From: a virus
Reading direction: 5' to 3' (one strand)
Virus record (IMG/VR): IMGVR_UViG_3300027586_000003
Span: 41,002-105,001 of that record
DNA length: 64,000 bases
The notes below the pieces were generated by a model. The model made no database searches and was not told where the DNA came from. It saw nothing but the letters and a program-made list of their open reading frames with translations. The stretch's first letter is position 1. Each line of letters starts with the position of its first letter. This document shows, one piece after another, positions 20,232 through 38,203 of this stretch. The position numbers and the translations under genes were made by a program.

Positions 20232-20663
20232 CTACACTGTTCGCGGCCCGAACTTGGCATCCAACTCTTTCAGATACGCCTCCATCTCCGGTGACTGCTC
20301 CCACACCGTCCCGTCATCCGGCACAAGGCGGCGGTCAACATCCTTCGGAAACTGCGTGAAGCTCGCTACGTCATTCGGCGTTGGCAACAATTCGACAGCC
20401 CGCGCCGGGTCATCCATCGGCACCACGGACAGATTGTAGTTTCCGCACAGCCTGATAAGGCTGTCGCAGAACAACTCCGGCTCGTCGGTGATGTCCACGC
20501 TCCGCTCGCTCTCCGGGTCAAAAAAGTCCTGCTTGACGACCATTTCCGTCGCGGCGGTGTCCGTCCAGCGCATCCTGCCGTCCGGCAGAAACTCAATCTC
20601 ACCAGCCCAAATTCTCGCCTGTGTTTCACGCGAAAACTCCTGAATTTGAATGTGACGGCTCAT
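20232..20663 (-). CDS. Acidic hypothetical protein coupled to the kinase gene (possible immunity/partner)
   Basis: ATGA overlap with the kinase stop; D/E-rich 143 aa. Confidence 0.6.
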   Translation of the reverse strand: MSRHIQIQEFSRETQARIWAGEIEFLPDGRMRWTDTAATEMVVKQDFFDPESERSVDITDEPELFCDSLIRLCGNYNLSVVPMDDPARAVELLPTPNDVASFTQFPKDVDRRLVPDDGTVWEQSPEMEAYLKELDAKFGPRTV

Positions 20664-22384
20664 GGTGCTCTCAGTCTAGCAAGGAAATTATCCGCATCTT
20701 TCGTCCCATGCGCCGACTTGCGCATCGCCTTGAAAAAAGTCGGGTTTGCGCCGCCGCTGGCATGAAGCATGGGTTGCAGATTAGCCGCACGCTGTTTCAT
20801 TGTCGAGACTGAACCGGGCAACAATCCATGCGTTGCTCCAAAGGTGTCAAGCCACGTTGCGAATTCTGGAGAATTTACTTTTCTTGAAAGCTCTGAAACT
20901 CTCCGGTCTGCCGCTGCATCCATCTGAACCTCGTGCGCAAAAACCATCGCCGTAGAGACGTTGCCCCCAACAAGCCCGGTGTGCTCGTAGGTGTGGTGGC
21001 TCTCTGGCAACGTCAATCCGTGGTCAATTGGATGAAGCCTTCCAACCTTGTCAACCATCATGTTGCCACTATGTCGGTCAGTGTTTCCAGTGATGTAGTC
21101 AAGCACTGCCAACTCCGCCAACCTAGACTTGTCATTATCCCAAAGTTTCGGCCAAAACTTCTTTGCGCGAACCTCATCCCCGTAAGCGTTTTTGGTAGGC
21201 ACTGAATCAGGATCGAAGTCAATCAACGATTGCAGTGAGCCTTTCTTGCCGTCCACTATCACCATCGCTGTTATGGAATGCTCAATCCCAAGTTGTTTTG
21301 CAATATCGTAGGAGGCAACCTCACGCTTCGCGCCGCTAACTGCACGATCATCAATGTTCGATCTGGCACCCTTACCTTCACCCGATTCCGGCTTGAAGAC
21401 GCCTTTCGTAACGGTTCCGTCGGCTGCGGTAGCCTTCAGAATGAAAGACTGGCTGTAGTTTTGCCTGCCGCCCAACTTGTCCAATTTTCTTGTGGTTGAA
21501 GTTGCAATATCGCCCGCCACTTTCTGCTGTTCGGCGTGAATGTTGGATTGGAAATTTCCGGGTGTGACTGGCGCAATTGGCTGCGCTGCCGGGGCGGCTT
21601 GGGCTACGGGGGCCACGGGGCGCATCGAATTTCGCTCCATGTGCGCTATCACGTCCTGCTGCCACCTTTTAATCCGTGGGGCAGCACCGTTCAGATTCAC
21701 GCCGCGCACAGCAGCCACGTCGTTGCGATAAATCGCCTGATTGATTGCGGCGATTCCAGCCCTTCCGATTGGTGCGTGTGCCTGTGGCCTAATGACTGGC
21801 GCACGCGGTGGCAGATGTTGCGCCGCTGCTTGCCGTGCAATAATCGCCGCTTGGCCTCGCAACGGGCCAGCCGCCGGGGGTTGCACTGCTGCCTGCCGTG
21901 CGATGTCCGCCGCGATTTTAGCGTCACGGACGGCCTGTGCGTTGGCTTCGGCGGCACGGGCGTTGTGTTCGGCCACAATGACCGCCCGGCGGGCGTCCTC
22001 TGGCGACGGAACTGGCAATGGGGCCGGTCGCTGAATCGCCGGGCGTGCGGCCTGCGGCGGTGGAGCCGTGTCCGGTCTGCCGGGGAGCGCACGGCGAGGG
22101 GGCCACTCGGCTGACATCGGATTCGGTTTCTCAACATCCGCCACCCGTTGCAGCCTGCCGCCGACCTTGGCGTAGTGCTTCCTGCCAAACTTGGGTATCT
22201 TCCCAATATCGCCTTGATTACCAGCCCCAGCCCCGACGTGGCACTTCAGGTCGCCTGCGATGAATCCGTCGCCGCACGCCTTACCACCACGCACACGGGC
22301 GTTTGCCAGCGTGCGTGCCGTGCGAACAATCTCGGCGTATGCTTGGTTGAGCATTTTTTGGAAATTAACTAAGCCGCTTGCCAT
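20660..22384 (-). CDS. Tagged protein with C-terminal PI3/PI4-kinase / HipA-like kinase domain
   Basis: GVFKP, KREVASY, GSLQ, DYITGNTDRHSGN and IDHGL motifs; N-terminal LAN...KACGDGFIAGDLKCHVG tag; Ala/Pro linker. Confidence 0.85.
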   Translation of the reverse strand: MASGLVNFQKMLNQAYAEIVRTARTLANARVRGGKACGDGFIAGDLKCHVGAGAGNQGDIGKIPKFGRKHYAKVGGRLQRVADVEKPNPMSAEWPPRRALPGRPDTAPPPQAARPAIQRPAPLPVPSPEDARRAVIVAEHNARAAEANAQAVRDAKIAADIARQAAVQPPAAGPLRGQAAIIARQAAAQHLPPRAPVIRPQAHAPIGRAGIAAINQAIYRNDVAAVRGVNLNGAAPRIKRWQQDVIAHMERNSMRPVAPVAQAAPAAQPIAPVTPGNFQSNIHAEQQKVAGDIATSTTRKLDKLGGRQNYSQSFILKATAADGTVTKGVFKPESGEGKGARSNIDDRAVSGAKREVASYDIAKQLGIEHSITAMVIVDGKKGSLQSLIDFDPDSVPTKNAYGDEVRAKKFWPKLWDNDKSRLAELAVLDYITGNTDRHSGNMMVDKVGRLHPIDHGLTLPESHHTYEHTGLVGGNVSTAMVFAHEVQMDAAADRRVSELSRKVNSPEFATWLDTFGATHGLLPGSVSTMKQRAANLQPMLHASGGANPTFFKAMRKSAHGTKDADNFLARLRAP

Positions 22385-23358
22385 GTCAATAGCGATGCTT
22401 TTTAGTTTGCGGCAACTATGTCACCATGCGACTGACTCTTGCAGCCGCCCATGTTTGCCCCGCGTCTCCGCCCCACAATGCCCACGCAATGCGGCCTGCG
22501 GAGGGAAAGCCATCTTCATTAGGCGTAAAACCTTGCCCCTTTTTATCAACTTCGTGTCGCGCAAAAAACGAGTGCATCCGCTTAACGGTGTCGTCGGAAA
22601 GATTTGATTCGTTGCTAATGTCCCTAGCGCGAGCAACCCCGACCTCGGTTCCTCCTCGGTTGTGTTCTCTGCGCCAAGCCAGACCGCGAGCGGCTTCCTC
22701 AATCATGTCTTTGCTCGGCTTGTTCTGAGATTTCTCAAACTCGGCAGAGTTGTTGAATGACTCGCCGCACGGTTGCCCGCTGTTCGCCAAGGCAACCGGC
22801 CCGTCGCACGCCGCCATCAATTCATCGAAGCTGAACTTGCCACGGTTCCGTAGCTGAACGTCCCGCTCAGTGACGCCGCCGACCAAGTTCTTAACCTGCT
22901 TGGCGAAGTGCAACATCTCGTCGAATCCGCGACTCGCCGCGTCCTTGATTGAGTCGTAGCTGTTGTGGAACATGGCTTTTGGAATCTCGTCCACGACCTC
23001 TAGCAGCGTCGCCCTGAACGTCTTCTCCATCTCTGGAATGGTGAACGTCTTTTGATGCTCGGCCAGCACTGCCTCTGGATTCTGTTCGTAGGCGAACCTC
23101 GCCCCGGCCCGCGTGTTCTTGCTCGCCACGACCATGAAAACCCGCTGCGTGCCGCTGGCGTCCTTTGCCTTGAACGTGACCGCCGCCATTCTGGCTGTCT
23201 CAGGCACGTCCACTCCGAGTTTGTCGCCCTGACCGGCGTGGCACTCTTTGTCCGCTGCTATGAAGCTGTCACCGCACGCCTTACCACCACGCACACGGGC
23301 GTTTGCCAGCGTGCGTGCCGTGCGAACAATCTGGGCGTATGCTTGGTTGAGCATTTTT
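22272..23358 (-). repeat. ~87-bp direct repeat (22272-22358 / 23272-23358) encoding MLNQAYAxIVRTARTLANARVRGGKACG
   Basis: Near-identical nucleotide sequence 1000 bp apart. Confidence 0.9.
22416..23354 (-). CDS. Tagged head-associated protein
   Basis: N-terminus duplicated from the kinase gene; C-terminal ARGLAWRREHNRGGTEVGVARARD...RMHSFFARHE...GRIAWALWGGDAG domain that I recognise from phage head-region proteins. Confidence 0.7.
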   Translation of the reverse strand: MLNQAYAQIVRTARTLANARVRGGKACGDSFIAADKECHAGQGDKLGVDVPETARMAAVTFKAKDASGTQRVFMVVASKNTRAGARFAYEQNPEAVLAEHQKTFTIPEMEKTFRATLLEVVDEIPKAMFHNSYDSIKDAASRGFDEMLHFAKQVKNLVGGVTERDVQLRNRGKFSFDELMAACDGPVALANSGQPCGESFNNSAEFEKSQNKPSKDMIEEAARGLAWRREHNRGGTEVGVARARDISNESNLSDDTVKRMHSFFARHEVDKKGQGFTPNEDGFPSAGRIAWALWGGDAGQTWAAARVSRMVT

Positions 23359-23369
23359 CGGGAAAGTAA

Positions 23370-26300
23370 TTAGGATTGCTGCGATGTAAACGCGAGTTCC
23401 GGGTGTTCGTCCGGCTCGTCAGCGCGATTCTTCATCGCCTCCGATTCTTCGAGAATCTTGGCACGAACCTGCTCCGGCGTGACCTCAAAGTTTTTTTCCA
23501 GCACCCAATCACGGACGGACGCCTTGACCGCCCCGATTTGAGTCCCCTTGAGCTTGGGAGCCGCAGCCATAATGTCCTTGCCGGTGAACACGGCTGAGAG
23601 CCGCTTTTCCATCTCCTCTTTCTTGCCGAACTGCTCAACCAAGCGGTCGGCACGGCCCATCTTTTTCTCGAAATCCTCCGCCTTGAACAGCGCACCACGG
23701 GACGCTTCATCGCTGCGCATGACCTCTCGCAGCAGCGGCCAGTTCTTCTCCTGCCGGAACCGCAGCGCGAGCCTGTCGCTCACCGCGTCGAAGTTGTGGC
23801 CGACCATGTGGTGTTCCACCGCCAGCGCAATCGCCTCTTTCTGCTCGTTGCTGAACTTCAACCGTGCGGCTGCCTTCTCCAAGAGCGGGATGCCAGCGGC
23901 CTCGTGCGCGATGTAGGTCGGCTGGCCGTCCTTCTCACCACGGGTGGTGGCCTTGCCGATGTCGTGAAGCAGAATGGCGACGTTCGTTGTCGCATCATTG
24001 GTGTTGCTGGCCTTGACCGCCTCCAAGACGTGCTCATACACGCCGCCCTCCGGGTGGTGCTTCGGGTTGTGCGGCAGTCCACGCATCGCCGCCACCTCTG
24101 GCAGCGTGTGCTCCAGCAGCCCGGCCTCGCTCATCACCGACACGAACTTCGCCAGCGACTTGCCGTTGTCCGCCGCCTTGAACACCTCGTCACGGATGCG
24201 CTCGCCGGAAATCGTGGCGACTGACGGAGCCAGTTTCTTCATGGCGTCCATCGTCTTCGCTTCAATGTCGAAGCCCAGCCGACCGGCGAACCTCGCCGCC
24301 CGAATCATCCGCAACGGGTCTTCAGTGAACCTTGCCTCCGGGTCGCCGACGGCGCGAATCACCTTGGCTTCTATGTCGGCTTTGCCGTTCTGCGGGTCAA
24401 CCAAGTTGCCTGCGGCGTCCATCGCCATCGCATTGATGGTAAAGTCACGACGCTTCGAGTCTTCATCGAAGCTGCCCGCCGCCGTGACAGAATCCGGCCT
24501 GCGCTGGTCGGTGTAAGCCCCGTCCGTGCGGAACTGTGCGACCTCGAATGTGTGGCCCTCATGTGGAATCGCCACAATGCCAAAGTCTGCGCTGTTGCCG
24601 ATTTCGTGCGAGCGGAAAGCGGACTGCAACTTCGCTGCGGGCAGCGGCGTCGCAATGTCGAAGTCCTTCGGCGTCTTGCCCATCACCATGTCTCTGACCG
24701 CGCCGCCGACAATGAGCGGATTCGTGCCGGGGAACTGCCGTTCAATCTCACCGAGGATGGACACGGCAGCCTTGGCCTGCGGGTTCGACTCAGCCATCTC
24801 TTTCAATCCGCCGCCTTCCTTGGGTGCGAACTTGCCGTCGGCGGCGCGAGGGTGAAGCGACTCCTCAAACTCGCCGGAGTTACTGATTTTGTTGCTCGAC
24901 TTGTTGAACCGTTTAGAGAGCGGGATGACGTTGCCTTGGTCGTCGCGGGTGATGGGGTCGGCGGATTTGATTTGGGAGGGGCTGAAGACGACAGTGACAT
25001 TGCTCGTGGCTGTCTGCCCCCCTTCGACTACGTTGCTTACCTTGAGAGAATCATGCCCGCGAGTTTGGGCAATGCCTGCGATGTCTCCTATGTCGCTGCG
25101 AGTATTGCCGTAGGTTACATCATACCACTGGGAGCCTTTTGCATCGACTGACAGCGGGTTATTAGTTTTAAGAAACACCTCCATTTGTGGCAGGTCGTTC
25201 ACCGGAGAGTCTGCAAAGTATATCCCGTCACCTACGTCGTTTGAAAATTCAGTGAACTTCTTATCTGTCCCGTGATAAGCCTTGGTGCCATACCCCGCCG
25301 CCTTCGCCGCCTCATCCACCATCTTCTGAGCCGTGAACGTGTCGCCCGACGCCACCGCGCCTGCGTAGGCCGCGTCCTGCTCAGGTGTGACCCCCACATG
25401 GCAAGTGTCGCCGGACTCAATAAAGCTCTCGCCGCAGGGCTGGCCGCTGTTGCTGATTTTGTTGCTCGCCCTGTTGAACCGTTTAGAAAGTGGGATGACG
25501 TTGCCAGCGGAGTCGAACACAACAGGTGAAGACGACTTTATCCTAGCGGAGTCGAAAACAGCTATCTCCCTGCTGCGAGTTTTCACTTCACCAAGCCCAC
25601 CAGCCGTCATATATCCACTGACAGAATTGAATCCTTTTCTTATTAAGTCATCAATGTCTCTGCTAGATATGTTACTTGAAGACCTTATCCCGTCTTTAAC
25701 TGTTGCCGTTCGCCCCAAGTTGACAAAGTATTTTACAGGCTTCATCATACCAACACCAATGTCTGTGAACTTCAAAAGCCTGTTTGAATCTTCAACCGTC
25801 GGTGTTAGATAGACTGCTTTCCTATACGTTGTTTTTCCAACGCCTTCAGATGGCTTGTAGTCGTCCGGCAACTTGCCAGCGTCAACCGCCTTGACCCAAG
25901 CATCGGCCCCGTGCTTGGCCGCAAAGTCACCCCAAACCTCATTCTCAATCGAAAGCGGTGTCCGTGGATACTCGGTTTGAAAAACCTCAATCGGCGACCC
26001 ATTTCTGGTTCGATGGTAGGCAACCGTGTAGCCAGCCGCCTTCGCCGCATCGTCCACCATCTTCTGAGCGGTCACAGTGTCACCCGCCGCCACCGCACCC
26101 GTATAGGCTGCGTCCTGCTCCGGCGTAACTCCGACGTGGCAAGTGTCTCCGGCTTCGATGAATGAATCACCGCACGGCTGGCCGCTGTTGCTGATGTTCC
26201 TGTCGCCCTTACTCCATGTGCCACGGTTGAATGCCGATTTAATCTGTTCAGGACGCAATGCGATGTAACTTGTGCCTTTGGACTCGCCCTTGTTATCGTA

Positions 26301-29300
26301 AATAACACCGTCGTAACCAATGCTGTTGAGCCACTTCACGTTCACGAGCCATCGCCCCTTGCTGCCATAGGTCGAGTTCTCGTTCAGTTCATCAATCCAT
26401 TCTTTGTGTTTGGATTTAGAGATTACCCCTTCGTTGAACATCTTGTTGTGAACATTGTGCCAATCAAAATCATCCAGCCTTAGTGGGTTTTTTATGCTGA
26501 TATAAACAGGCTTTATGTTCGCGCCTTCGGCGTAGGCTGGGTTTTCGTATCCTTGAAAGAATCGGCTTCTAAAGTTGTAATTTATGATGTCGTTTGCCTG
26601 CTGTGCCGTTCCGAAATGCGAGCCTAAACCTTCCTTTACCCTTCCAAACTCCGTGAAACCAGCATTGGTTCCGTGATAGACCACAAGCGGCTTCCCGTCC
26701 TTATCCACAACCTTCGAGTCTCCGAACCATTCCTTGAACTCAGGCGATTCTGTGCTGGCGGGCCTGAGTGCTGGCGCGGTCTGGCCTTCACCTTCACCAA
26801 CATGGCACGTTTTGTCTGCGGAGATTGACGACTCACCGCACGGCTTGCCGGTGTTTCTGTTCAGCATCGGTTCGTCACGATTCGCCAGCTTCTTCGGCGC
26901 AATGCCCATCTCCTTTGTGAACTTGTTTGCCGCCTTCAACACATCTTTGATGTCCATGTCAATTCGGCGCGTCTTGATTTTTGTGTCGCCGAACTTTCCG
27001 TCCTTCGCATCCAGCCCAATCTTCGCCGCCCAGCGGTGGTGCCCATCAATCACATAGCCATCACGCGACACGAAGATGGAGTTCTCATCAAGGCCGACCG
27101 CCTTCTGACCCTCCGGCGACATCATAAACGCCACGTTGCTGCCCTTCAACTCGCTCTGCGACGCTTTCAATGAAGAAGCAGGTTGGTCAATGTCTTCGGT
27201 CTTGACGCCCTTCTTTAAGAGGCTCTGAACGAACGCTTCGCCGACATTAACCTCGCCCGCTTTATCCTTCGGGAAATTTTTCTCATCGTCCACGGTTGAA
27301 CCTTTTACCGGAAACCCAGCCAGTTGCGGCATCTCGGAGCGTGGAATCGGCTTACCGTCGTCGCCCTTCAATGACTCGCCGCAGAACAGGTTGGTTCCCG
27401 GCACGGACACCTTGCACAGATTCAGGTTTACCTTCTCGCCGCTCTTCTTAGCTTCGTTAGCAAACTTGTGGATTTCCTCAATTGCGGTGTTGACCTCTTT
27501 CACGCTTTTCAGAACCACGTCACCACCGCCTTTAAGCGCAGTGACCGCCGCCTTGCCAGCCTCCTCTTCCGCTGTGGCCTTCACCGGCTTCTCCTCAACC
27601 GCCTTGACCGCAGCTTCCGGTGCCTTCGGCGATTCAGCCGCCTTGGCCGCTTCCGGCTGTGCGCCAAGATACTCGCCTATCTTGTCGGAAAGTTTGCGCG
27701 ACGCGCCGATGGCTCGCTGTTGCTGCTGCAAGGCGTGAAGGACTTTCAGTTCCTTCATCTTGTCTGTGTCAGGAAGAGCCTTCGCTGTCTCGACGTGCGC
27801 CTTCAACTCGCCAAGCAATTTGCCAACCTCTTCGATGCTTTTCGGCTTCACCATCTTGATTTGGCCGGACGCTGCCATTGTGGACATGGGCTTGGCACCC
27901 GCAGAATCCGTCTTGCCCGCCTTATCCGCCTTCGGAGTCGCCGCCACCGCCGCCGTGACCGGCGCATCCTTTGTCGGGGCTGTCTCGCCAATGTGGCACT
28001 CCATTTCCTCGCCGATGAATGACTTGCCGCACGCCTTGTTTTCCAGTGTGCCTTCGCTGTTCTCCTTGACCAACTTCGCAATCTGTTCGTGCATCTCCTC
28101 TGCGGACACACCACGCGGGAATATAAAGCTCACGCGCCCGCCCGGAGCGGCATTCTGCAAGCGAATCTCCGCCATCTTGCCAAGGTCGAAAATAGCGAGT
28201 TCCTTCAACTGCTTGGCCTGCTCCATTGCGCCGCCGACCGCCTTGTGAATCTGAACCACGTCCAAGAAAATCTTGCCGCTCACCTTGTCAAACCAGCCGC
28301 CCATGTGCGCCAGAGGGTCTTTCTTCAACGTCTCTGCCGCCCGGTCGAAGAAACCCTTCACCGCCTTGACGGAAAGCTGCTTGGCGTTCAACACCACCTC
28401 TAAATGCTTGTAGGCACTGACTGCGAAGCCGGACTTTGGAGACTTGTTCTGAGCCGGTTCGTAGGTGAAGCCGCCTGACTTCCTGAGCTTCGTCACCAAC
28501 TGCTTTCCCTCTGCGTGTGAGAAGTCACCTTCACGGCACGTCTTGTCATCGGAAATGAAGGACGCACCGCATGGCTTGTTCGACAGCGCATCGTCTTCAA
28601 TCCACGGTGCGTCGTTGTCCAGTTCTTCGCTGACCGGCTGCGTCGTGTCCTCCATCTTCAACCACGCCTTGAACTCGTCAACCGTCATCGGCGTCACGTC
28701 GCCGACCCGCTCTGCACCGCGACCGTCGCTGAATCCCTTATGATATGTGCTGAGTGCGGTGAACAGGTTCGGGAACGCCAGCATGACCTTGTGTTCGTCA
28801 AAGTCACCCGTGTTGGCATCCACTTGGTCAATCACAAACACCTTGCTGGAATCGGGTGCGTCGCCGAGATACACGTCAACCTCATCTCCGTCGGCTCCCT
28901 CAGTGTCAATGACGTAGCCATACGAAGCTGGCATCACCGTCGCCCAAGTTTCCCCTTCACTGTTCGTCCCACTACGGACGCCGCCCTTGGGATTCTCGAC
29001 GCTGATTGACAGGCCGTTCCACGTCGCCTCGCCCTTCAGGTAGTTGCCGGACTCTTTCTGCGCATCCGTCGGAGCCGCCGCCACCGTCACCGGCTGGCCT
29101 AGCACGGTCGCTGCCACTATGTCGGTGCGGTTGTTGAACTTGCTGTTGTTGCTATTGAACCGCTGGGAAAGCGGAATCACACTGCCAGTATCATCACGAA
29201 CAACCGCATCACTTCGCTTGAATTTTGAAGTGTCAAAGATTGCAATATGCCTTCCGGTCGCTCCCGGCCCGTCGTGTATCGCCGCCGAGAATCCAGCCTT

Positions 29301-30008
29301 CAAAAGTCCAGCGGCTACGCTGCCATACCGACGCTCCAGCGAGATAAGCGGCAAAGCGTCAGTCACAGTTCTTCCGAGAAGTGTTCCGACGGCACCCGCA
29401 ACTTCCGGCGTTATTGGCTTTGTCATGTCAACCACACGACCGCCAACGTAACCGGACGCAACTCGGCCAGAGGCAAGTTGCGCTGGATTCCAAGAGCCTT
29501 CCAAGGTCGCATAAATCGCGGGGCCAAGCACCGCTCCTTCCCTTGACTTTGAAATGTCGAAGTCTGCAAAATTAGCATTGGTTCTGTGAACAGCCGGGCC
29601 AACCGTATATCCAGCCGCCGCCGCCGCTTCATCCACCATCTTCTGAGCCGTGGCCGTGTCACCAGACTCCACCGCCTTCGCATACGCCGCGTCCTTCTCC
29701 GGCGTCACCCCAACATGGCAAGTGTCGCCATCCTCAACAAATCCAGCCCCGCACGGCTGGCCGTTCGTAAGCCGCTCAAACGAGTTTGGAACGCTAACCG
29801 CAGGATTAGCCCATTCACTCACCCTGTTCGCCCACGCGCCAGCCTGACGCGCAGGCGGGCCATTCTGGATGAACTCTTTGAACGCAGCACCTCCGGGAAG
29901 GACGGATTGCAATACTTGGCGGGTGACTGCCGCCGGAAACCGGGAGCGGTTCAGGAACGCAACCACCTCACGAACCCGCGTAGCGTAAATAACGGAGGGG
30001 TTGTGCAT
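23370..30008 (-). CDS. Polyvalent protein (2212 aa): 4 ART-PolyVal-like domains, InPase domain, ParB/Srx-like domain, unknown domain, C-terminal CCA-adding enzyme with HD domain
   Basis: FKEWFGDSKVVDKDGKPLVVYHGT...IKNPL...GYDGVIY...QIKS (ART-PolyVal); GNYLKG..W.GLSISVENPKG..R.G...YGY...GADGDEVDVYLG (InPase); DGYVIDGHHRWAA (ParB-like); VGGAVRD/DFDIAT/RRDFTINAMA/EDPLRMIRAARF/HHPEG/LLHDIGK (class II nucleotidyltransferase + HD). Confidence 0.9.
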   Translation of the reverse strand: MHNPSVIYATRVREVVAFLNRSRFPAAVTRQVLQSVLPGGAAFKEFIQNGPPARQAGAWANRVSEWANPAVSVPNSFERLTNGQPCGAGFVEDGDTCHVGVTPEKDAAYAKAVESGDTATAQKMVDEAAAAAGYTVGPAVHRTNANFADFDISKSREGAVLGPAIYATLEGSWNPAQLASGRVASGYVGGRVVDMTKPITPEVAGAVGTLLGRTVTDALPLISLERRYGSVAAGLLKAGFSAAIHDGPGATGRHIAIFDTSKFKRSDAVVRDDTGSVIPLSQRFNSNNSKFNNRTDIVAATVLGQPVTVAAAPTDAQKESGNYLKGEATWNGLSISVENPKGGVRSGTNSEGETWATVMPASYGYVIDTEGADGDEVDVYLGDAPDSSKVFVIDQVDANTGDFDEHKVMLAFPNLFTALSTYHKGFSDGRGAERVGDVTPMTVDEFKAWLKMEDTTQPVSEELDNDAPWIEDDALSNKPCGASFISDDKTCREGDFSHAEGKQLVTKLRKSGGFTYEPAQNKSPKSGFAVSAYKHLEVVLNAKQLSVKAVKGFFDRAAETLKKDPLAHMGGWFDKVSGKIFLDVVQIHKAVGGAMEQAKQLKELAIFDLGKMAEIRLQNAAPGGRVSFIFPRGVSAEEMHEQIAKLVKENSEGTLENKACGKSFIGEEMECHIGETAPTKDAPVTAAVAATPKADKAGKTDSAGAKPMSTMAASGQIKMVKPKSIEEVGKLLGELKAHVETAKALPDTDKMKELKVLHALQQQQRAIGASRKLSDKIGEYLGAQPEAAKAAESPKAPEAAVKAVEEKPVKATAEEEAGKAAVTALKGGGDVVLKSVKEVNTAIEEIHKFANEAKKSGEKVNLNLCKVSVPGTNLFCGESLKGDDGKPIPRSEMPQLAGFPVKGSTVDDEKNFPKDKAGEVNVGEAFVQSLLKKGVKTEDIDQPASSLKASQSELKGSNVAFMMSPEGQKAVGLDENSIFVSRDGYVIDGHHRWAAKIGLDAKDGKFGDTKIKTRRIDMDIKDVLKAANKFTKEMGIAPKKLANRDEPMLNRNTGKPCGESSISADKTCHVGEGEGQTAPALRPASTESPEFKEWFGDSKVVDKDGKPLVVYHGTNAGFTEFGRVKEGLGSHFGTAQQANDIINYNFRSRFFQGYENPAYAEGANIKPVYISIKNPLRLDDFDWHNVHNKMFNEGVISKSKHKEWIDELNENSTYGSKGRWLVNVKWLNSIGYDGVIYDNKGESKGTSYIALRPEQIKSAFNRGTWSKGDRNISNSGQPCGDSFIEAGDTCHVGVTPEQDAAYTGAVAAGDTVTAQKMVDDAAKAAGYTVAYHRTRNGSPIEVFQTEYPRTPLSIENEVWGDFAAKHGADAWVKAVDAGKLPDDYKPSEGVGKTTYRKAVYLTPTVEDSNRLLKFTDIGVGMMKPVKYFVNLGRTATVKDGIRSSSNISSRDIDDLIRKGFNSVSGYMTAGGLGEVKTRSREIAVFDSARIKSSSPVVFDSAGNVIPLSKRFNRASNKISNSGQPCGESFIESGDTCHVGVTPEQDAAYAGAVASGDTFTAQKMVDEAAKAAGYGTKAYHGTDKKFTEFSNDVGDGIYFADSPVNDLPQMEVFLKTNNPLSVDAKGSQWYDVTYGNTRSDIGDIAGIAQTRGHDSLKVSNVVEGGQTATSNVTVVFSPSQIKSADPITRDDQGNVIPLSKRFNKSSNKISNSGEFEESLHPRAADGKFAPKEGGGLKEMAESNPQAKAAVSILGEIERQFPGTNPLIVGGAVRDMVMGKTPKDFDIATPLPAAKLQSAFRSHEIGNSADFGIVAIPHEGHTFEVAQFRTDGAYTDQRRPDSVTAAGSFDEDSKRRDFTINAMAMDAAGNLVDPQNGKADIEAKVIRAVGDPEARFTEDPLRMIRAARFAGRLGFDIEAKTMDAMKKLAPSVATISGERIRDEVFKAADNGKSLAKFVSVMSEAGLLEHTLPEVAAMRGLPHNPKHHPEGGVYEHVLEAVKASNTNDATTNVAILLHDIGKATTRGEKDGQPTYIAHEAAGIPLLEKAAARLKFSNEQKEAIALAVEHHMVGHNFDAVSDRLALRFRQEKNWPLLREVMRSDEASRGALFKAEDFEKKMGRADRLVEQFGKKEEMEKRLSAVFTGKDIMAAAPKLKGTQIGAVKASVRDWVLEKNFEVTPEQVRAKILEESEAMKNRADEPDEHPELAFTSQQS

Positions 30009-30548: not shown

Positions 30549-30911
30549 TCAGCCGGAATTAAAAAGCGAACTGCACTTCGGACGGTCAACCTGATGCGCA
30601 AACACCTTCAACCCGCCACGCTTCGCCTCCTGTATCAGCCCGTCAACATCCTCCCCGCTTCGCACCACAACCAAGGCGTCCGCATACGCAATCATCTGCC
30701 GCCGCTGAACTTGAGTCATCCGGTCACTGGCATCGTCTGACGGAAGCCGCCGAACAGGTATCCCGTGTTCCTCTGCCCACTGCTCGCCAAGCGCATCCTC
30801 TGCTGCGCAACCCAACACCACTTCCGACACCGCAAACGGATAAGCCATCATCGCCGCAAATACCTCTCGATACTCCGCCACGCCACCACAACCAGCGATG
30901 ATCGTTCGCAT
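30549..30911 (-). CDS. SLOG family (DUF2493/YspA-like) protein, possibly degenerate
   Basis: MRTIIAG...EVVLGCAAEDALGEQWA..HGIPV...MIAYADALVV. Confidence 0.7.
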   Translation of the reverse strand: MRTIIAGCGGVAEYREVFAAMMAYPFAVSEVVLGCAAEDALGEQWAEEHGIPVRRLPSDDASDRMTQVQRRQMIAYADALVVVRSGEDVDGLIQEAKRGGLKVFAHQVDRPKCSSLFNSG

Positions 30912-30992
30912 GGTTACGAAACCTCTTAGAATCAGCAACGTGGTCAAGAGGAAACGGTTGAACTTGTGCCGCGTTGACCGTTTCTAAAAAGC

Positions 30993-31027: not shown

Positions 31028-31041
31028 GTTGAGATTTTCGC

Positions 31042-31971
31042 TTAGGAGGTGATGTTCAGTCGGACGGCGGCAGTCGAGTTTGTCACCTTGACATCCTCAC
31101 TCCAGTCAAACTTGGCGACTTCCACACGCCCGTCGTCGCGGACGTAGCTGCCCGGCACCATGTAGTTGTTGGTGAGGCGGAACGTCTTCATAAACGACGG
31201 GTCGCGGCGCGTGGGGTTAGCGCGGCGGGCGAAGATGAGGACGGTGGAATCCAGCACGAAGTTGATGTCTTCGGCGACGCCTTCGGGGGCGTTGTCATAC
31301 ACCATGTAGGACACGCGCACGTCAGGGGAGCCGAGGAACAGCGAGGACGCGGATTCCGGGGTGATGTTCGGGATGGCATTGCCGCCAGCCGTGGTGAAGC
31401 GAGCGCGGACGTTCGCCTGATTCTTGAAGATGCGAAACGCAGACGCACCGAACAGGACGCCGACACCCATGAGGGAGCCATACTTCGCGGCCTTGATGAC
31501 GGCGAGAACATAGGTGTCAATGTCGTTGACGGGGTCGGCGGACGAGTTCCACGTCTTGTCGGTTCCCGCTCCGATGCTGGAGAGCGCGGTATCCACGACA
31601 AGCTTTTCGTGGGCGAGGCCCGCGATTTCAGCGACGAGGGTGGCACCCTCTTCGAGCACGGATTCCAGCCCTTCAGCTTCAAGCTCTTCGAGGTTGTCCA
31701 CAGGGAAGTCGAGGGCGTGCGGGGCGCAATTATAGGTTGCGTCGGCGACGGCGAACGAGAGTTCCGTGGCGCGTCCACCGATGCCACGAAGGGTGGCGGG
31801 GATGCGGAAGCGGTTCTTCTCGGTGTATTGCTTGTAGCGGCCAACGCTGGCAGCGACAGGCACGGTGGGGGCGATGAAGTCGGCGACAGGCTGAACGCCT
31901 TCCTGAGCCGCGCCTTGCGCGTAATCACGAAGCATCTTGCTCTCACTGACGGATTGGAGACGTGTAGGCAT
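31042..31971 (-). CDS. Major capsid protein (HK97 fold, gpE-like)
   Basis: 309 aa; L.DYAQG...VADFIAPTVPV....GRYKQY pattern; order protease-scaffold-cement-capsid-adaptor; followed by a terminator. Confidence 0.85.
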   Translation of the reverse strand: MPTRLQSVSESKMLRDYAQGAAQEGVQPVADFIAPTVPVAASVGRYKQYTEKNRFRIPATLRGIGGRATELSFAVADATYNCAPHALDFPVDNLEELEAEGLESVLEEGATLVAEIAGLAHEKLVVDTALSSIGAGTDKTWNSSADPVNDIDTYVLAVIKAAKYGSLMGVGVLFGASAFRIFKNQANVRARFTTAGGNAIPNITPESASSLFLGSPDVRVSYMVYDNAPEGVAEDINFVLDSTVLIFARRANPTRRDPSFMKTFRLTNNYMVPGSYVRDDGRVEVAKFDWSEDVKVTNSTAAVRLNITS

Positions 31972-32477: not shown

Positions 32478-33062
32478 TTAAATGGAGTTTTTGATGGACA
32501 GTTCCGTGCGTGCCTTATGGAAGGCGTCTCGGTGAGCCATACCCTTGTTGGAAAGCTGAATCTCGGTTGTCCGGTTGCGAATCCACGCGCTGTCAGAGGC
32601 GGGCATGGTGGCAGCGGAATCGCCGACGATGGATGCCGGGAGAGCGGAACGGTTGCGATTATGCAACGGGGCGGACACGGTGGCGGTGTCAGCCGAAGGA
32701 GCAGCGGGAGCCGACTTCAGGCCGGTGAGGAACTTATACGTCGCATCACGGTTGGAAATCAGAGACTCCTTTACGGAGGCGGCGTCGCGGATGACCGACT
32801 TGAACGCTTCCACGTCGCGGTTGGCAAGCTCTTCGAGGAGGACAACCGTGCGGTTCTGGAGCGACACAATCCGCTCATTAGAAGCGGTCGTCTCAGCGTT
32901 TGCGACAGCGACTTCATCGCGTGCCTTGAGGATGGCATCGTCCATCTGCTCCTTGTAGCCGACCATATCCTTTTGGAAGGATGAGTTAGCCAAAGAGATT
33001 TCCTCGTCAGTGGCCGAATTCGCCAGACCGAGCAGACTGATAAGTTGTTCTTTGTGATTCAT
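32478..33062 (-). CDS. Scaffolding protein
   Basis: LLGL..SATDEEI motif of Mu-type scaffold regions; helical; C-terminal capsid-binding-like helix (HRDAFHKAR). Confidence 0.75.
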   Translation of the reverse strand: MNHKEQLISLLGLANSATDEEISLANSSFQKDMVGYKEQMDDAILKARDEVAVANAETTASNERIVSLQNRTVVLLEELANRDVEAFKSVIRDAASVKESLISNRDATYKFLTGLKSAPAAPSADTATVSAPLHNRNRSALPASIVGDSAATMPASDSAWIRNRTTEIQLSNKGMAHRDAFHKARTELSIKNSI

Positions 33063-33130
33063 ATATCGCGTTCGTTATTGCGGATGTAATTCAAGCCGCA
33101 TGGTTGTCAAAACAATTTTAAGAAATTTTT

Positions 33131-34351
33131 TCACCGTGAAATAGGAGTTAGACCCTTTAGGTTTGGCTCATTAGTCAAAGCTACTGAATCTAGCACCATT
33201 GGACGCAACTGGCCGTTGTCAAGTGTTTCGCAATTGCGCTTGAGCCATACTGGCGAGACGAGCCTATACCGCCCGCCGTTGACCGCCTTCTCGCCTACGT
33301 CTGTCCATCGCACCTGTCCCCACATACCGTCGTTACGCTTGGCAAGGTTTTCAATCCAGCCGCCCGCCTCCGATGGCTTATCGCCTGACTGAGAGAAGTG
33401 GTCAAAGTCCAGCAATGCTCCGGTGAAGTTTTTGTCGCTGGCCTTGCGGGCGGCAAAGTTCGCCACCATAGCGTCCACCGATTTTGCATCAATCAGTTGC
33501 ACCACGCCGGTTGGATGAGGATGGCTGCCGAACGGTGCAAGGTGAATCCAGCCGTCGGATGGAACACTGAATCGGTTGTTCAGCTTGCTCACGGCTTCAA
33601 CGCAGATGCCAAGCCGGACTTCGGATGTGTTTCCGTAAATGGTTTTACTCCGCAGCGGATACATCACCTTCACGCCTGACGAGTCTATCCTTTCCTCGTT
33701 GCTTTGAAGCGCGACTGGGATTCTCGTCCCCTTCGCGTAGGTGTCCACCCGGTATCCCTGCTTGTATTTTTCGCCTTCGTTAATCGTTCGATGCGTCTCG
33801 TCGGTTGTGACAGAGCTTAGAAGCGGGAGTTTCAAAGAGCGGCGGATGAAATCAGGAGTCGGTATCCCGTGGTCGTCTGTCGGAGCACTCACGAACTTGC
33901 CATCACTCATGTATTGCCAAACGGGTTGCTTGGTTTCCGGGTTCCACGTTCTGACGGATAAATTAGCCCGGTCAAAATCGGAAATGTCATGCGAACCTTC
34001 ACCGCCGACATGGCATTGATGACCGTCAGGGATGTGCGAGTCGCCGCACGGCTGCCCGTTCGCCAAAGCCTGCTCACCGCTCAGGCTGTGCATCGGAGCC
34101 ACCGTGTCGCCCTGTTCCTGTTTCGTAGCGTCTTCCGTAGCAGCGGAATCAATCTCCATCCGGGGAACGGTCTTCTGCCGCTCCCGATACTCACGCTGCT
34201 TCGCTGACGCCGTGATGCGGGCCAAACGGTCAGGGGTCAGGTTGTGCTGCCCAACGGCTACCTTCTTGGCGGTGACGTGCTGAGAGACACGGGCACGCGA
34301 CGGCGCGGCGGTCGTCTTGGTGCTGGCACGGTTGAAGAGTTTGTAGAACAT
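33131..34351 (-). CDS. Prohead protease (Mu gpI-like) with ~250-aa N-terminal extension carrying a tag
   Basis: WIHLAPFG...LLDFDH...AGGWI..L..R.DGMWGQVRWT..G...V..GRYRLVSP...VALTNEPNL at the C-terminus. Confidence 0.88.
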   Translation of the reverse strand: MFYKLFNRASTKTTAAPSRARVSQHVTAKKVAVGQHNLTPDRLARITASAKQREYRERQKTVPRMEIDSAATEDATKQEQGDTVAPMHSLSGEQALANGQPCGDSHIPDGHQCHVGGEGSHDISDFDRANLSVRTWNPETKQPVWQYMSDGKFVSAPTDDHGIPTPDFIRRSLKLPLLSSVTTDETHRTINEGEKYKQGYRVDTYAKGTRIPVALQSNEERIDSSGVKVMYPLRSKTIYGNTSEVRLGICVEAVSKLNNRFSVPSDGWIHLAPFGSHPHPTGVVQLIDAKSVDAMVANFAARKASDKNFTGALLDFDHFSQSGDKPSEAGGWIENLAKRNDGMWGQVRWTDVGEKAVNGGRYRLVSPVWLKRNCETLDNGQLRPMVLDSVALTNEPNLKGLTPISR

Positions 34352-34354
34352 GGG

Positions 34355-36640
34355 CTACTCGTGCTTTTTTTGCCACTTCTCGCCAGCAATGCGTCGGCGT
34401 TCAATCATCTTACGAAATTGTGGTGAGCGAACACGGGCGTCCATCGCTGCCCGCTCTTCAGCGGTTCCAACTTGAACTGGCAGATGTTCGACTTTCACCA
34501 CCTTATGCAACTTCTCATTGCTCCGCTCAAACGGCCTGCCGAGATAATGCTTCTCCACATCTTCCTTAGTGCCGTTTATTTCTGTGGCGAAACTGTCGCC
34601 GCTGTCAAAGTGAACCTTCACGGCCCGGCGTTTGAAAACAGCGTCGTCCACGGAGGCTGGCGTTGCGGATTCTCCGACACGGCACGTCAGACCGGCTGCG
34701 ATGTGCGAGTCGCCGCAGGGCTGTCCACCGGCACCAGCGTTCACAATCGTTTCGAGCGGTTCTGTGACGGAGCGGTTCTCGTGCTTTTCTTGCCATTTCT
34801 TACCAGCAATGCGTCGGCGTTCAATCATCTTGCGAAATTGTGGCGAGCGAACGCGGGCGTCCATCGCGGCCTGTTCAGCCGCAGTTCCAACTTGAACTGC
34901 CGATGGGCCGGGACTCGCTGTTGGCGGAGCCGCAACGGGCGCAATGTCACGCGCCTTCTTGCCCTGTTCGTAAAACTGCCGCATCCGCCGAAACGCAATC
35001 TCTGTCATTTTGTCTGATTCAATCTCGCCTCGCTCTGTCGGCTCGCCTGTAACGGCGCGGTCGTAGCGGCGTCTCTCGTCCACCGACAAGAACCGCTTGA
35101 ATGATGAGGCGTTGGCGGGAAGCGCAGCCTCAACCGGGTCGGTATCAATGTCATCGCCGCCAAGCGAAAGATGATGAACACCATCGCCATTACGCCGCGT
35201 CTCCCAAGATTTCCTCACACCCTCGCTCGTTCCCGCATTCGCTATCTTTTCCCGGTCTTTGTTCAGCACTTTGAAAACTTCTCCAACCCCTTCGAGGGAC
35301 TCAACGTGCAGGAAAAGTTCCGGCAGCTTTCTAGCCTCATTTGGCTCGGCGCGGCCAGCGGCCAATACGTGTCCAGCCCCATACTTTTTGGCAGTGAATG
35401 TCTCCCTGCCAGACCGCTCAACCAATGCCTTTTGAGTCTTGCTAAGGCGGCACGTCAGACCGGCTGCGATGTGCGAGTCGCCGCACGGCTGTCCGCCAGC
35501 ACCCGCATTCACCATCGCCTCCAGCGCATCATGGTAGCGGTTAGCGTAACCCGGACGGTCACGCTCAACCATGTGGTCAATCGTCTCCATCAGGTTGTCG
35601 GCATACACGTCGTCGCGCTTGCCCTGCGGCTTCCACTGGCCCATCCGCACCTTGCCAGTTTCAACCATATAAGTGTCGTTCGCCATGAGGCGCACCTTCA
35701 CGATGCCGTGACCGAGCTTGCCGCCGTTGACTTTGAACTGAACGCCGCCCCTCTGGTAGCCGCCGTCCGGTGTCGAGCCAGCGGGCATGATGGTAAGATT
35801 TCTGGTGCCCCACGCCATTATAGCACTGCGGTCGGTGGCTTTGATTTGGTCAATAATCGTGGTGGCTATGTAGCGTTCCTCGTGCTTTTGATCGGTATCG
35901 GAATTAGGGGTTGTCTTCGGCTCGCTCTGATACGTTGGACGGGAACCGTCCCCGACACGGCATTGATGCCCATCGGGAATGTGCGAGTCGCCGCAGGGTT
36001 GAGAATTTGAATAGCGGCGAGGAGGTGGCAAGTCGGCGGATAGGTATTTCCCATATTTAGGGTGAGTTTTCTCCGAAATGATAACAGCACGCTTGTCGCC
36101 GTCACGTAATCGGTCAATACGCGACGATGAAGCATGAATCTCAACAATCTGGCCGTTAAACTTAACGTATTTCGCCCCATCCCCGAGAATTACCGCATCT
36201 ATGCGAGCAATCTGTTTTGACGACTCTTGTGGAGCCGCGCCTTGACCGACACGGCATTGATGCCCGTCGGGGATGTGGCTGTCGCCGCAGGGCTGTGAGT
36301 TGAACAGGCTGCCGACGCTGTTGCTAACCGAGTGCGAGTCCTTCCACATCTTCCGCTCCTTGATTTCCTCACCAACCTTGGCGAGTCCTTCAAGCGAGTT
36401 CGGGTCATCCTTCGTGACGAGTGCGCTCTCCGAAAGTGACGCGAGACGCGAGTTTCGCATTGCGCTCATTGCCGCCCGGTAGCCGCCGTTCTCCATCTCT
36501 TCATCGTCGTCACCTTCATAGTCGTTGACGATCTTGGTGTCATAGTCGTTGACAATCTTGGTGTCGGCGGCTTGCTCGTCGTCGGCCTCACACTTGGCGC
36601 AGCCGCACCCGCCGTTAAACAGTTTGTAGAACTGTGTCAT
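34355..36640 (-). CDS. Modular head-region polyprotein (761 aa) with 4 C-x10-C tags and small cargo domains
   Basis: NSQPCGDSHIPDGHQCRVG x2, NAGAGGQPCGDSHIAAGLTCR x2, NAGTSEGVRKSWETRR; internal ~40-aa duplication (34360-34480 / 34780-34900). Confidence 0.8.
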   Translation of the reverse strand: MTQFYKLFNGGCGCAKCEADDEQAADTKIVNDYDTKIVNDYEGDDDEEMENGGYRAAMSAMRNSRLASLSESALVTKDDPNSLEGLAKVGEEIKERKMWKDSHSVSNSVGSLFNSQPCGDSHIPDGHQCRVGQGAAPQESSKQIARIDAVILGDGAKYVKFNGQIVEIHASSSRIDRLRDGDKRAVIISEKTHPKYGKYLSADLPPPRRYSNSQPCGDSHIPDGHQCRVGDGSRPTYQSEPKTTPNSDTDQKHEERYIATTIIDQIKATDRSAIMAWGTRNLTIMPAGSTPDGGYQRGGVQFKVNGGKLGHGIVKVRLMANDTYMVETGKVRMGQWKPQGKRDDVYADNLMETIDHMVERDRPGYANRYHDALEAMVNAGAGGQPCGDSHIAAGLTCRLSKTQKALVERSGRETFTAKKYGAGHVLAAGRAEPNEARKLPELFLHVESLEGVGEVFKVLNKDREKIANAGTSEGVRKSWETRRNGDGVHHLSLGGDDIDTDPVEAALPANASSFKRFLSVDERRRYDRAVTGEPTERGEIESDKMTEIAFRRMRQFYEQGKKARDIAPVAAPPTASPGPSAVQVGTAAEQAAMDARVRSPQFRKMIERRRIAGKKWQEKHENRSVTEPLETIVNAGAGGQPCGDSHIAAGLTCRVGESATPASVDDAVFKRRAVKVHFDSGDSFATEINGTKEDVEKHYLGRPFERSNEKLHKVVKVEHLPVQVGTAEERAAMDARVRSPQFRKMIERRRIAGEKWQKKHE

Positions 36641-36643
36641 AGC

Positions 36644-38203
36644 TCAGTTTTGTTCATCCATCCACTCCTCGTATTGCTCACGAAGGTCGTCCGGCAGCGT
36701 TTCCCCGTTGCTGGCATAGTCCGCTACTTCATCCAGCATCTCTTGAACGTCGTGCTGGTAGTTCTTCAGCAGACCGCCACGGAAGCTGTTGAGCAGCGCA
36801 CCGTAGGCACGGTTTCCGAGCGATGATGCGTGCGCGGCCTTGGCCTTCACCAGTGCGGGGTGATACTTGCTGTGAATCTCCTTGAGAATGGATTCAGCCT
36901 TGGCCTTGAGTGCGTTCTGCGCCTCAGTGCCATCGCCGAAGTCACGGGCGCGGGCGTAGTAAGCCTTAGCGCGGGACACGTTCTGACCGATGAGGCCGTT
37001 CGCCTTGTCCGGCTCGCTGCCCTTGCCGTATTTCTCGCGGATGCCGCCGGGCTTCGTCACTGGCTCGTAGCCGTGGATGGTGTGGAAATCTTCGCCACGG
37101 GAATTCTTCTCGAAGTCCGCATTCGGTTTCCAAGAACCCGCTGCAATCGCGGTGTGAACGTCCTTCGGCAAATCCAGTTCGATGTTCTTCTGCCCATCAA
37201 GCTGACCTTGGATTGTCAACTTGACGTGCTTGCCGCTGCCGCTTTCGTGGTCGAACGTGTCGCCAGCACGGACGCCGCCGCGACGGGTCAGCCAACCTTC
37301 GTGTGCGCCTTCGGAGTTGCCTGCGTTCTCCACGCCGTCTTTCTTCCACGGCGGAACCCACGCTTTCTTGCCGTCTTTATCCTCTTCATCGCCGTCATCG
37401 TTCGGGCCTTTGCCGTCTTTGTGTTCCGGCTCTTTCTTGGCGTCGTCTTTTATGTCGCCAAGGGAGTTTTGGCCCTTCTTGAACAGCACGAACTCGCCGT
37501 TTGCCATCTTTTTGTTCGCGCCTTCACCTTCTTTTTCTTCGTCTATTCCGCCATCCTTCGCATCCTCTTCTTTATCTTTGGACTCGTCTGCCGCGATGTC
37601 GCCAAGGGAGTTCTGCCCTTTCTTGAACAGCTTGAACTCGCCGTTCGCCAGCGCGTCGGCGGGCTTCGTGGCGGCGGCGAGCTTGTTGGCGAGGGTGTCG
37701 GCGTCGGGCTGTGCTGAATTTTTATATGCCGGAGTCGCCCCACCTTTCACAAGCCTCGCTTTCAAAGTTGGGTGCATCTTCGTTGCGTCATGCGGGAAAT
37801 CCCAAGTGGACGACCTTGGGTGAACTGGGTTGGAGTAGGTCTCGTTGTCCGCGTGAAGGTATTGAACCCCGTCCTTGTGTTTCTTAATCAAGGGAGGCCC
37901 GTCGCCGTTTGATGCGTCCACAACCCGCTTATTCGCATCCTCGCTTCCTGCCCACTTCACATACTCTTCCAACCGCTTCCTTTGCTCAGGAAATTCTTTC
38001 GGGTCATTGGCTGCGATGCTGGCGCGAACACTGGCAACCGTGTCTTTTGGCTGTAATCCGCCACCTCCCGCCCGCCGCGTCTCCCAGCCTTTCAGCGCAC
38101 CTTCCGACGTGCCGTTCACCAGCGCAAGGTCGGAAGCCCGCTTGGCCGCAAGGCTGTTTCCGTGGTTGCGTCCGTTGCTTACCGAAAAAGGAGTGCGCTT
38201 CAT
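36644..38203 (-). CDS. Charged low-complexity head-region polyprotein (519 aa)
   Basis: NGTSEGALKGWETRR / NAGNSEGAHEGWLTRR; duplicated ANGEF.LFKKGQNSLGDI; first gene of the head operon. Confidence 0.75.
   Translation of the reverse strand: MKRTPFSVSNGRNHGNSLAAKRASDLALVNGTSEGALKGWETRRAGGGGLQPKDTVASVRASIAANDPKEFPEQRKRLEEYVKWAGSEDANKRVVDASNGDGPPLIKKHKDGVQYLHADNETYSNPVHPRSSTWDFPHDATKMHPTLKARLVKGGATPAYKNSAQPDADTLANKLAAATKPADALANGEFKLFKKGQNSLGDIAADESKDKEEDAKDGGIDEEKEGEGANKKMANGEFVLFKKGQNSLGDIKDDAKKEPEHKDGKGPNDDGDEEDKDGKKAWVPPWKKDGVENAGNSEGAHEGWLTRRGGVRAGDTFDHESGSGKHVKLTIQGQLDGQKNIELDLPKDVHTAIAAGSWKPNADFEKNSRGEDFHTIHGYEPVTKPGGIREKYGKGSEPDKANGLIGQNVSRAKAYYARARDFGDGTEAQNALKAKAESILKEIHSKYHPALVKAKAAHASSLGNRAYGALLNSFRGGLLKNYQHDVQEMLDEVADYASNGETLPDDLREQYEEWMDEQN

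Follow-up and report, generated by a model that had tools for sequence, protein, structure and literature searches.

The head region of a large, uncultured phage is encoded in the end part of the 105-kb IMG/VR virus record IMGVR_UViG_3300027586_000003, and this 64-kb stretch of DNA (the window) is the subject of the present analysis. A short motif made up of a hydrophobic residue, any residue and asparagine (h-x-N) recurs there in the capsid scaffold, around the Mu gpI-type head maturation protease and in a series of tagged polyproteins. Sequence comparison supports the view that this motif is a real, selected element tied to the protease lineage, and that its positions are those expected for the cuts of a maturation protease, that is, at both borders of the protease domain, in the scaffold linkers, at the ends of leaders and at every module joint. 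It appears fairly likely that a clade of Mu gpI-type, assemblin-fold proteases would cut after Asn and thereby dice scaffold and cargo polyproteins. We infer all four elements of this scenario: cutting at the motif, the Mu-type protease as the cutter, the bond after Asn as the one cleaved, and packaging and injection of the modules. New would be a protease cleavage code ending in Asn joined to polyvalent cargo, cleavage codes and polyvalent proteins each being known already.

According to the proposed scheme, the protease would recognise [LIVM]-x-Asn and cut directly after Asn, with Arg as the typical next residue in scaffolds and one of Ser, Gly and Ala in cargo. In small prophages, a cut at P-[LIV]-S-N|R (the bar denotes the putative scissile bond) would free the protease from the fused scaffold, and a cut at I-R-N|R would sever the scaffold from its C-terminal helical end, with the remaining scaffold being shredded. 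Larger phages, including this one, would have taken over the scaffold cut code for cargo. Unrelated enzyme modules, each with a leader or linker ending in h-x-N and then a tag (Cys-Gly or SEG), would be strung into polyproteins of 312-2212 amino acids (aa) and cut into single tagged modules inside the prohead. The substrates of the one protease would be the scaffold, the protease's own flanks, the tail of the portal protein (M-L-N|R) and the cargo polyproteins.

For quantification, h-x-N-[SGARK] with h being L, I, V, M or F was counted against 2000 composition-preserving shuffles per protein, which sets the floor of the p-value at 0.0005. The scaffold, a protein of 194 aa (32478-33062; like all genes of the head region on the minus strand), contains 10 such sites where 1.3 are expected (p = 0.0005, the test floor). 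Observed and expected numbers are 9 and 2.2 in the 761-aa protein (34355-36640; p = 0.0005), 8 and 2.1 in the 519-aa protein (36644-38203; p = 0.001), 17 and 9.0 in the 2212-aa protein (23370-30008; p = 0.0065), and 5 and 1.4 in the 312-aa protein (22416-23354; p = 0.009). The excess is not significant in the 406-aa open reading frame (ORF) of the protease (4 and 1.6) and in the 2499-aa tail protein (21 and 16.0), and the major capsid protein is not enriched (1 and 1.6). By the same test, no motif excess was found in the helicase and the replication-side ORFs, and no significant one in the proteins of 148, 132 and 141 aa. Among the 108 ORFs of the whole 105-kb record, the scaffold, the 761-aa and the 519-aa proteins occupy ranks 1 to 3 for motif enrichment. 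An unbiased scan of 20 residue types at seven offsets returned a hydrophobic residue at position -2 of Asn as the top signal of the head-cargo set (80/223, p = 1.8e-6), and this signal was not among the top ones of the control set. Enrichment is seen in the scaffold and the tagged proteins only.

An earlier, sequence-only reading had seen the sites in every head-region protein, which holds for the scaffold and the 761-, 519-, 2212- and 312-aa proteins and does not hold for the capsid protein and the 148-, 132- and 141-aa proteins. Its proposal that a count against composition shuffles would separate head from tail and replication proteins was borne out for these five enriched proteins. Its scaffold sites were recovered as well, 10 of the 13 Asn residues lying in [LIV]-x-N (LAN three times, VAN, LQN, ISN, LHN, IRN, LSN and IKN), always with S, A, R or K as the next residue, and the sites named for the 2212-, 761-, 519- and 406-aa proteins were all found in place. 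The portal-tail sites MLN-R and LEN are likewise real, albeit in a gene (61509-63080) outside the region 20660-38203 to which they had been ascribed.

The candidate for the cutting enzyme is the protease ORF of 406 aa (33131-34351), which is matched by the Pfam family Mu-like_Pro (6.4e-20) and is a head maturation protease according to PHROG. The Mu-like_Pro (PF10123) match of 72.4 bits, at a cut-off of 25.2, covers aa 269-404 and profile positions 1-133 of 330; it is the only Pfam match of this ORF, and a search of the whole genome with Mu-like_Pro led to the same locus. The ORF starts with a 7-residue leader ending in LFN, continues with a Cys-Gly tag at aa 101 after LAN (34058-34066) and a passenger region, and has LNN|R (33575-33583) directly ahead of the protease domain (aa 260-406, 33134-33574). 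This domain includes His318 and Ser366, which correspond to His68 and Ser116 of fused relatives and are presumed to be catalytic. In VIA-align, the top three rows for the protease domain are T4 gp21 (5jbl_A, Z 9.5, root-mean-square deviation 3.5, 126 residues aligned), the protease of varicella-zoster virus (VZV; 1vzv_A, Z 7.7) and that of human cytomegalovirus (8j3s_A, Z 5.4), while Foldseek against PDB gave weak matches only (E 0.15, probability 0.8).

Protease and scaffold are separate genes in the window, with a gap of 68 nucleotides, while they are fused in most relatives; a nesting of the I/Z type is thus not present. The protease ORF ends with P-I-S-R-stop, at most one residue from the junction P-[LIV]-S-N|R of the fused relatives, so that the break between the two genes coincides with the cut proposed for the fused proteins. 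Two scaffold sites are conserved in position, LHN|R (32658-32666) in a Pro/Ala linker and IRN|R (32574-32582), 31 residues from the C-terminus. The C-terminal tail of the portal, past its Portal_Mu domain, contains MLN|R (61644-61652), LEN and VDN|K, and comparable sites are found in several relatives. In favor of the earlier claim that the Mu gpI-like protease cuts after Asn are the placement of the motif, a protease fold with conserved His and Ser and the lack of any other protease found in the record, the cutting itself being deduced.

With the capsid protein as a query, 116 related loci were collected; its relatives comprise 36 in IMG/VR (44-70% identity) and at least 80 in bacterial genome bins. 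Searching capsid protein and scaffold against 50,697 GenBank phages by tblastn gave no match, and for the protease domain GenBank phages contain relatives of only 27-34% identity. Since the bins are almost all from Verrucomicrobiota, Lentisphaerae and Kiritimatiellia, including the isolate Pontiellaceae B12227 and Akkermansia bins, the host is probably a PVC-group bacterium. About 75 related protease/scaffold genes from IMG/VR phages and PVC-group prophages share the motif with the consensus [IL]-x-N-R. In the scaffold parts of 20 IMG/VR relatives, a hydrophobic residue stands at -2 of 133 out of the 231 Asn residues (p = 2e-33), there are 106 NR dipeptides where 18 are expected, and Arg makes up 43% of the residues after Asn. 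For 56 dereplicated genes from genomes of the PVC group, a set independent of the first, the figure was 302/555 against a background of 0.207 (p = 3e-68); the p-values of both sets overstate independence, the sequences within a set being related, and the effect size is alike in both. The relatives' scaffold parts carry the motif far more strongly than the scaffold of the window.

An alignment of 18 protease-scaffold fusions defines the placement of the sites. Invariant in it are His68, Ser116 and the Asn residues 144, 156 and 240, and N264, N293 and R294 are nearly so. Site (a) lies 8-14 residues ahead of the D-G-W start of the protease domain, and site (b), L-T-N-x-P, which is present in Mu too, at its end. 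About ten residues past (b), at the protease-scaffold junction, follows site (c), P-[LIV]-S-N|R, with the invariant N156. In the genome-bin genes, h-x-N-[RSKA] is found at this junction after L-T-N-x-P in 33 out of 33 cases, and the nearest GenBank phage, Akkermansia phage DTMo-2021a, has L-V-N|R there. The scaffold part contains site (d), [LIV]-x-N-R-E, ahead of its last helices, site (e), P-[LIV]-x-N-R, within a variable linker rich in Pro and Ala, and site (f), I-R-N-R-A-x-E-I with the near-invariant N293 and R294, 25-31 residues from the C-terminus. One of the fusions was modelled by AlphaFold (predicted local distance difference test, pLDDT, 81); in the model, the protease is folded at residues 1-145, (c) opens a disordered linker, and (d) falls on a helix break and (e) on a further disordered stretch. 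The two sites in disordered linkers are the sole conserved residues of Pro/Ala-rich, variable stretches. In two relatives (L010, 7052-7996; L011, 6914-7912), a Cys-rich, zinc-ribbon-like segment with a basic tail replaces the helical scaffold, and the junction L-A-N|R is kept.

The repeated motif was not found in Mu gpI/Z (1 of 10 Asn residues in h-x-N, no N-R repeats), nor in RC1, MP48 and a Ralstonia phage, where L-T-N-x-P alone is kept. From its lack in these classical Mu-like phages it follows that the motif is a general feature neither of helical scaffolds nor of the Mu family, and Asn specificity would belong to one clade only and could not be called a trait of Mu gpI-like proteases in general. 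Classical Mu-like scaffolds repeat A-A-L-S-A (Mu I/Z, L037 7057-8142) or A-A-L-T-A/R (MP48, L040; the Ralstonia phage, L041) in 3-5 copies each, which may be the counterpart of the h-x-N-R repeat. The composition of the scaffold sites also bears on a mechanism that would need no protease at all, in which Asn cyclises to a succinimide and the chain breaks by itself, as in the capsid maturation of nodaviruses and picornaviruses or in inteins. The pairs most prone to succinimide formation, Asn-Gly and Asn-Ser, are indeed frequent at the cargo joints. This mechanism is nevertheless very improbable, given that the scaffold sites are mostly Asn-Arg, that many sites are located in disordered linkers, where a catalysing fold is missing, and that a required hydrophobic residue at -2 suggests a binding pocket.

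Turning to the cargo, tagged beads start in one of three ways, with a Cys-Gly tag ([PA]-C-G-x-[SG]-[FH]-I, 4-5 residues, C-[HR]), with a SEG tag (G-T-S-E-G-A-x-K-G-W) or with the repeat G-E-F-x-L-F-K-K-G-Q. The 761-aa protein is organised like beads on a string, with an FYKLFN leader, four Cys-Gly tags and one SEG tag, each after h-x-N except for one after Y-S-N. In the 519-aa protein, two SEG tags and two GEF-LFKKGQ repeats each stand directly after h-x-N. The 2212-aa polyvalent protein has six Cys-Gly tags, and its 17 h-x-N-[SGARK] sites are mostly at module borders. According to Pfam and sequence inspection, its modules include ART-like ones (ART-PolyVal), InPase, a ParB-like motif, a CCA-adding enzyme (PolyA_pol and an RNA-binding domain) and HD; with InPase at 315-451, ART at 1102-1262 and the CCA enzyme from 1766, the sites flank these domains, and only two of the 17 fall inside Pfam-matched ones. 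The 312-aa protein combines an 18-residue leader ending in LAN with two tags. In the tagged PI3/PI4-kinase-like protein of 574 aa (20660-22384; Pfam 1.5e-11), the only three h-x-N sites are all in the 28-residue leader, which ends in LAN (22301-22309); with a leader and tag like those of the 312-aa protein, it is a candidate for an injected kinase. A protein of 1097 aa outside the head module (47407-50700, minus strand) has an N-terminal leader followed by LAN and a Cys-Gly tag (50644-50652) and is a candidate for further cargo.

All 20 tags of the window have an Asn 0-7 residues upstream, 18 of these with L, I, V or M at -2, one with Tyr, and one with an h-x-N two residues further upstream. 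In the 312-, 574-, 761-, 406-, 519- and 1097-aa proteins, the leader always ends in h-x-N, with F-Y-K-L-F-N common to the 761- and 406-aa proteins and an end in T-L-A-N common to the 312- and 574-aa proteins. On other contigs, eight homologues of the 761-aa protein are built from the same beads in other orders and numbers, F-Y-K-L-F-N being sometimes internal. In these, all 34 distinct tag junctions have Asn within 7 residues upstream, in 33 cases with a hydrophobic residue at -2. The 132-aa protein (30549-30947, minus strand), which has a weak SLOG/YAcAr match, has the C-terminus L-F-N-S-G-stop, and the identical string precedes Cys-Gly tags elsewhere. A Cys cluster, G-G-C-G-C-A-K-C, is found directly after the F-Y-K-L-F-N leader (36590-36613, minus strand; aa 10-17 of the 761-aa protein) and reads C-x-C-G-C-G-K-C in the relatives P0020-P0022. 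Together with two invariant Cys residues per Cys-Gly tag, it suggests that cargo may be cross-linked by metal or disulfides.

This reshuffling of modules between relatives at the joints would also be expected if the motif had neither a proteolytic nor a docking role, with cargo h-x-N riding along in the joint of cassette-swap recombination and the scaffold copies reflecting a structural preference such as helix capping, Asn being a common helix-cap residue and one site being at a helix break. The tags are encoded with both Ser codon families and all four Pro codons, which implies that the protein is under selection rather than a recombination site in the DNA, and the variable spacing of 0-7 residues between Asn and tag indicates that site and tag are separate elements. 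Considering also that the scaffolds of Mu, RC1 and MP48 lack such a bias and that the two disordered linker sites alone are conserved in their variable stretches, this explanation is improbable. Three simpler readings of the motif were tried and rejected: an N-glycosylation sequon, because most sites do not read N-x-S/T; helix capping or the general composition of scaffolds, because Mu, RC1 and MP48 are without the bias; and a recombination joint at the level of DNA, because the codons vary.

Granted that the joints are cut, the cargo could be processed by another enzyme, namely a domain within the polyproteins themselves, a protease of the host or one encoded in the 23% of the genome that the record lacks. 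Iyer, Burroughs, Anand, de Souza and Aravind (2017) predicted that polyvalent proteins are processed into units by zincin-like MPTase domains (PMC5512222), and the preference for S, G or A after Asn in cargo sites, against R in scaffold sites, would be in line with a second enzyme, as would the incompleteness of the record. For MPTase-PolyVal (PF18818), no match at E <= 0.1 was obtained across the 105-kb record, while a positive control genome was matched, and S78 (PF04586) was not matched across the record either. In about 75 genes that come without any cargo, the scaffold is full of the h-x-N core and the protease has it on its flanks, which ties the motif to the head protease. In the small PVC-group prophages, no tags were found within 8 kb of the capsid gene, and a search for the Cys-Gly tag in the full records of five relatives gave one weak match of 16 residues (E 0.0076) and nothing convincing. 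Because the cargo joints carry a motif shared with the capsid scaffold, the head protease is indicated rather than an MPTase, and a different enzyme at the joints is still less probable than the recombination and capping explanation above.

The main rival of cleavage after Asn is that the motif would be an uncut docking signal, which binds the inner capsid surface or the protease and recruits scaffold and cargo by avidity, in the manner of an encapsulin cargo-loading peptide. Many copies of the motif, their coupling to tags that resemble packaging signals, and their presence at extreme N-termini, where a cut achieves little, fit this explanation, and so does the I-R-N-R-A-x-E-I copy in a confident helix of the conserved C-terminal domain. 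On the other hand, docking would not need exact placement at the two edges of the protease domain, at the ends of leaders and at each joint between modules, the protease gene of the window ends at the junction site, and the restriction of the residue after Asn to small or basic ones is typical of a cleavage subsite. On balance, docking is unlikely, though it is the most serious of the alternatives.

Several observations weigh against proteolysis after Asn. In the model of the fusion, site (f), the most conserved scaffold site, is inside a confident helix, which counts against simple accessibility; it may be a structural or binding element. The capsid protein has V-[TS]-N-[SA] (31075-31083, minus strand; aa 296-298) 11 residues from its C-terminus, with Asn invariant across 37 sequences and a hydrophobic residue at -2 in 95% of them. 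This motif, which Mu gpT also has as V-S-N-E, is probably structural, a warning against counting each h-x-N as a site. An AlphaFold model of the 761-aa protein, based on eight sequences, has a pLDDT of 47, with five out of five joints of low confidence, as are 65% of all residues, and is too poor to show the joints as linkers. The record is 77% complete, and the missing part could encode another protease. Finally, a report of an Asn-specific prohead protease was not found in the literature searched, which covered few subscription journals; the same literature yielded no paper on the cleavage specificity of Mu gpI, and a paper on P1 contained no site of relevance.

As to the scissile bond, sequence cannot fix it, and there are hints that it is the one after Asn, since leaders end with Asn and tags begin as close as the next residue. 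A further hint comes from another phage lineage, in which free-standing ART-PolyVal modules start at M-P-S-D and are preceded in polyproteins by I-R-[YF], which aligns without a gap to I-S-N of the present phage. In that lineage, represented by contigs of 37-44 kb (P0003-P0016, loci L125-L158), ART-PolyVal modules are joined by S-E-D-I-R-[YF] and then M-P. The joint motif occurs there in 2-5 copies inside giant proteins of 1500-2400 aa, with one further copy in a neighboring ORF, and a repeat of it in the scaffold was not seen in the loci examined. The sequence-only reading had added that the released domains would be small enough to pass the tail. This addition is not supported here; predicted fragments reach approximately 390 residues, and much larger proteins, such as the virion RNA polymerase of N4 and gp16 of T7, are known to be ejected.

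Short cleavage codes are well known from other capsid proteases. The sites of T4 gp21 are L/I-x-E, and capsid-targeting leaders of T4 end in L-x-E. Sites of the type (S/A/G)-x-E or A-x-E are cut by phiKZ gp175 and SPN3US gp245, the A-x-E code in head proteins of the latter being a precedent for a code of the form P3-x-P1 (PMC10052503). Common to these systems, including the leaders of the T4 proteins IPI-III and Alt, and to the phage described here are the capsid-protease fold, a code of three residues, the last one fixed, with an excess in internal proteins and in the scaffold or core, short leaders at the N-terminus that have this code at their end, and sites at the protease's own borders. 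In contrast, the last residue would be Asn here instead of Glu, the protease is of PF10123, the Mu gpI family, and not of the T4 gp21 family, and the window has polyproteins of swappable enzyme modules, in which a Cys-rich or SEG tag would be kept after the proposed cut.

With Mu gpI/gpZ and gpH, the phage shares protease homology (72 bits), the L-T-N-x-P end motif, the conserved His and Ser, a Mu-type portal (PF06074), a Mu-like capsid protein and, in most relatives, the fusion of protease and scaffold. Mu gpH is reportedly, in work of Grimaud from 1996, processed at its C-terminus, and the C-terminal tail of the portal has candidate sites here. Unlike in the window, repeated h-x-N-R is lacking in Mu gpI/Z (1/10 Asn), which repeats A-A-L-S-A, while protease and scaffold of the window are separate genes and the protease has an N-terminal tagged passenger. 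The herpesvirus assemblin precursor is similar in fold (VZV protease, Z 7.7), and sites (c) and (f) reproduce the layout of its release (R) and maturational (M) sites, with cutting at either being putative. Differences are the Ala|Ser cut of herpesviruses, the many extra internal sites and the cargo found here, and the predicted helical state of the M-like site. Like polyvalent proteins (PMC5512222), the cargo has InPase, ART-PolyVal and other effector domains in one polypeptide encoded beside virion genes; unlike in those, there is no MPTase match in the 105-kb record, at its completeness of 77%.

If cleavage after Asn holds true, the capsid-protease family would gain a new specificity, Asn at P1, predicted by sequence analysis, and a head protease instead of an in-built metallopeptidase would be able to process polyvalent effectors, which would answer how those without a peptidase domain are processed. 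The open prediction of Iyer et al. (PMC5512222) would become directly testable, and cultured carriers exist with a prophage, having a fused protease-scaffold gene for 350 aa (locus L095), in the isolate Pontiellaceae B12227, besides relatives in Akkermansia genome bins. Leader, h-x-N and tag would then make up a portable address-and-release label for foreign proteins in capsids, comparable to the T4 capsid-targeting system, and the motif could be used for annotating cargo genes far from the head module, as is the case with the 1097-aa protein. A more far-reaching version, in which one Mu-type branch would be strictly Asn-cutting and a universal cut mark together with Cys-rich and SEG tags would let large PVC-group phages load, dice and reshuffle cassettes of anti-host enzymes in the capsid, is given slightly less than an even chance.

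The complete phage genome is estimated at approximately 136 kb, of which the record represents 77%. In the order of transcription, the head region comprises the 519-aa ORF, the 761-aa ORF, the protease ORF, the scaffold, an ORF of 141 aa, the major capsid protein of 309 aa (31042-31971, minus strand; Mu-like, phrog_1005 of PHROG), two small ORFs and the proteins of 2212, 312 and 574 aa. The portal of the Mu type (61509-63080, minus strand; PF06074, Portal_Mu 1.4e-34) is encoded about 23 kb upstream of the head module, a layout which is unusual for a Mu-type head. The annotated part of the gap between them (38272-50700, minus strand) includes a DUF932 protein, an ERCC3/SNF2-like helicase (41734-43050), a PAPS-reductase-like protein (46219-46950) and the tagged 1097-aa protein. 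The phage genome also carries a gene for transfer-messenger RNA, at 54218-54616 of the window on the minus strand, for which ARAGORN predicts a tag peptide of 29 residues ending in ALAA.

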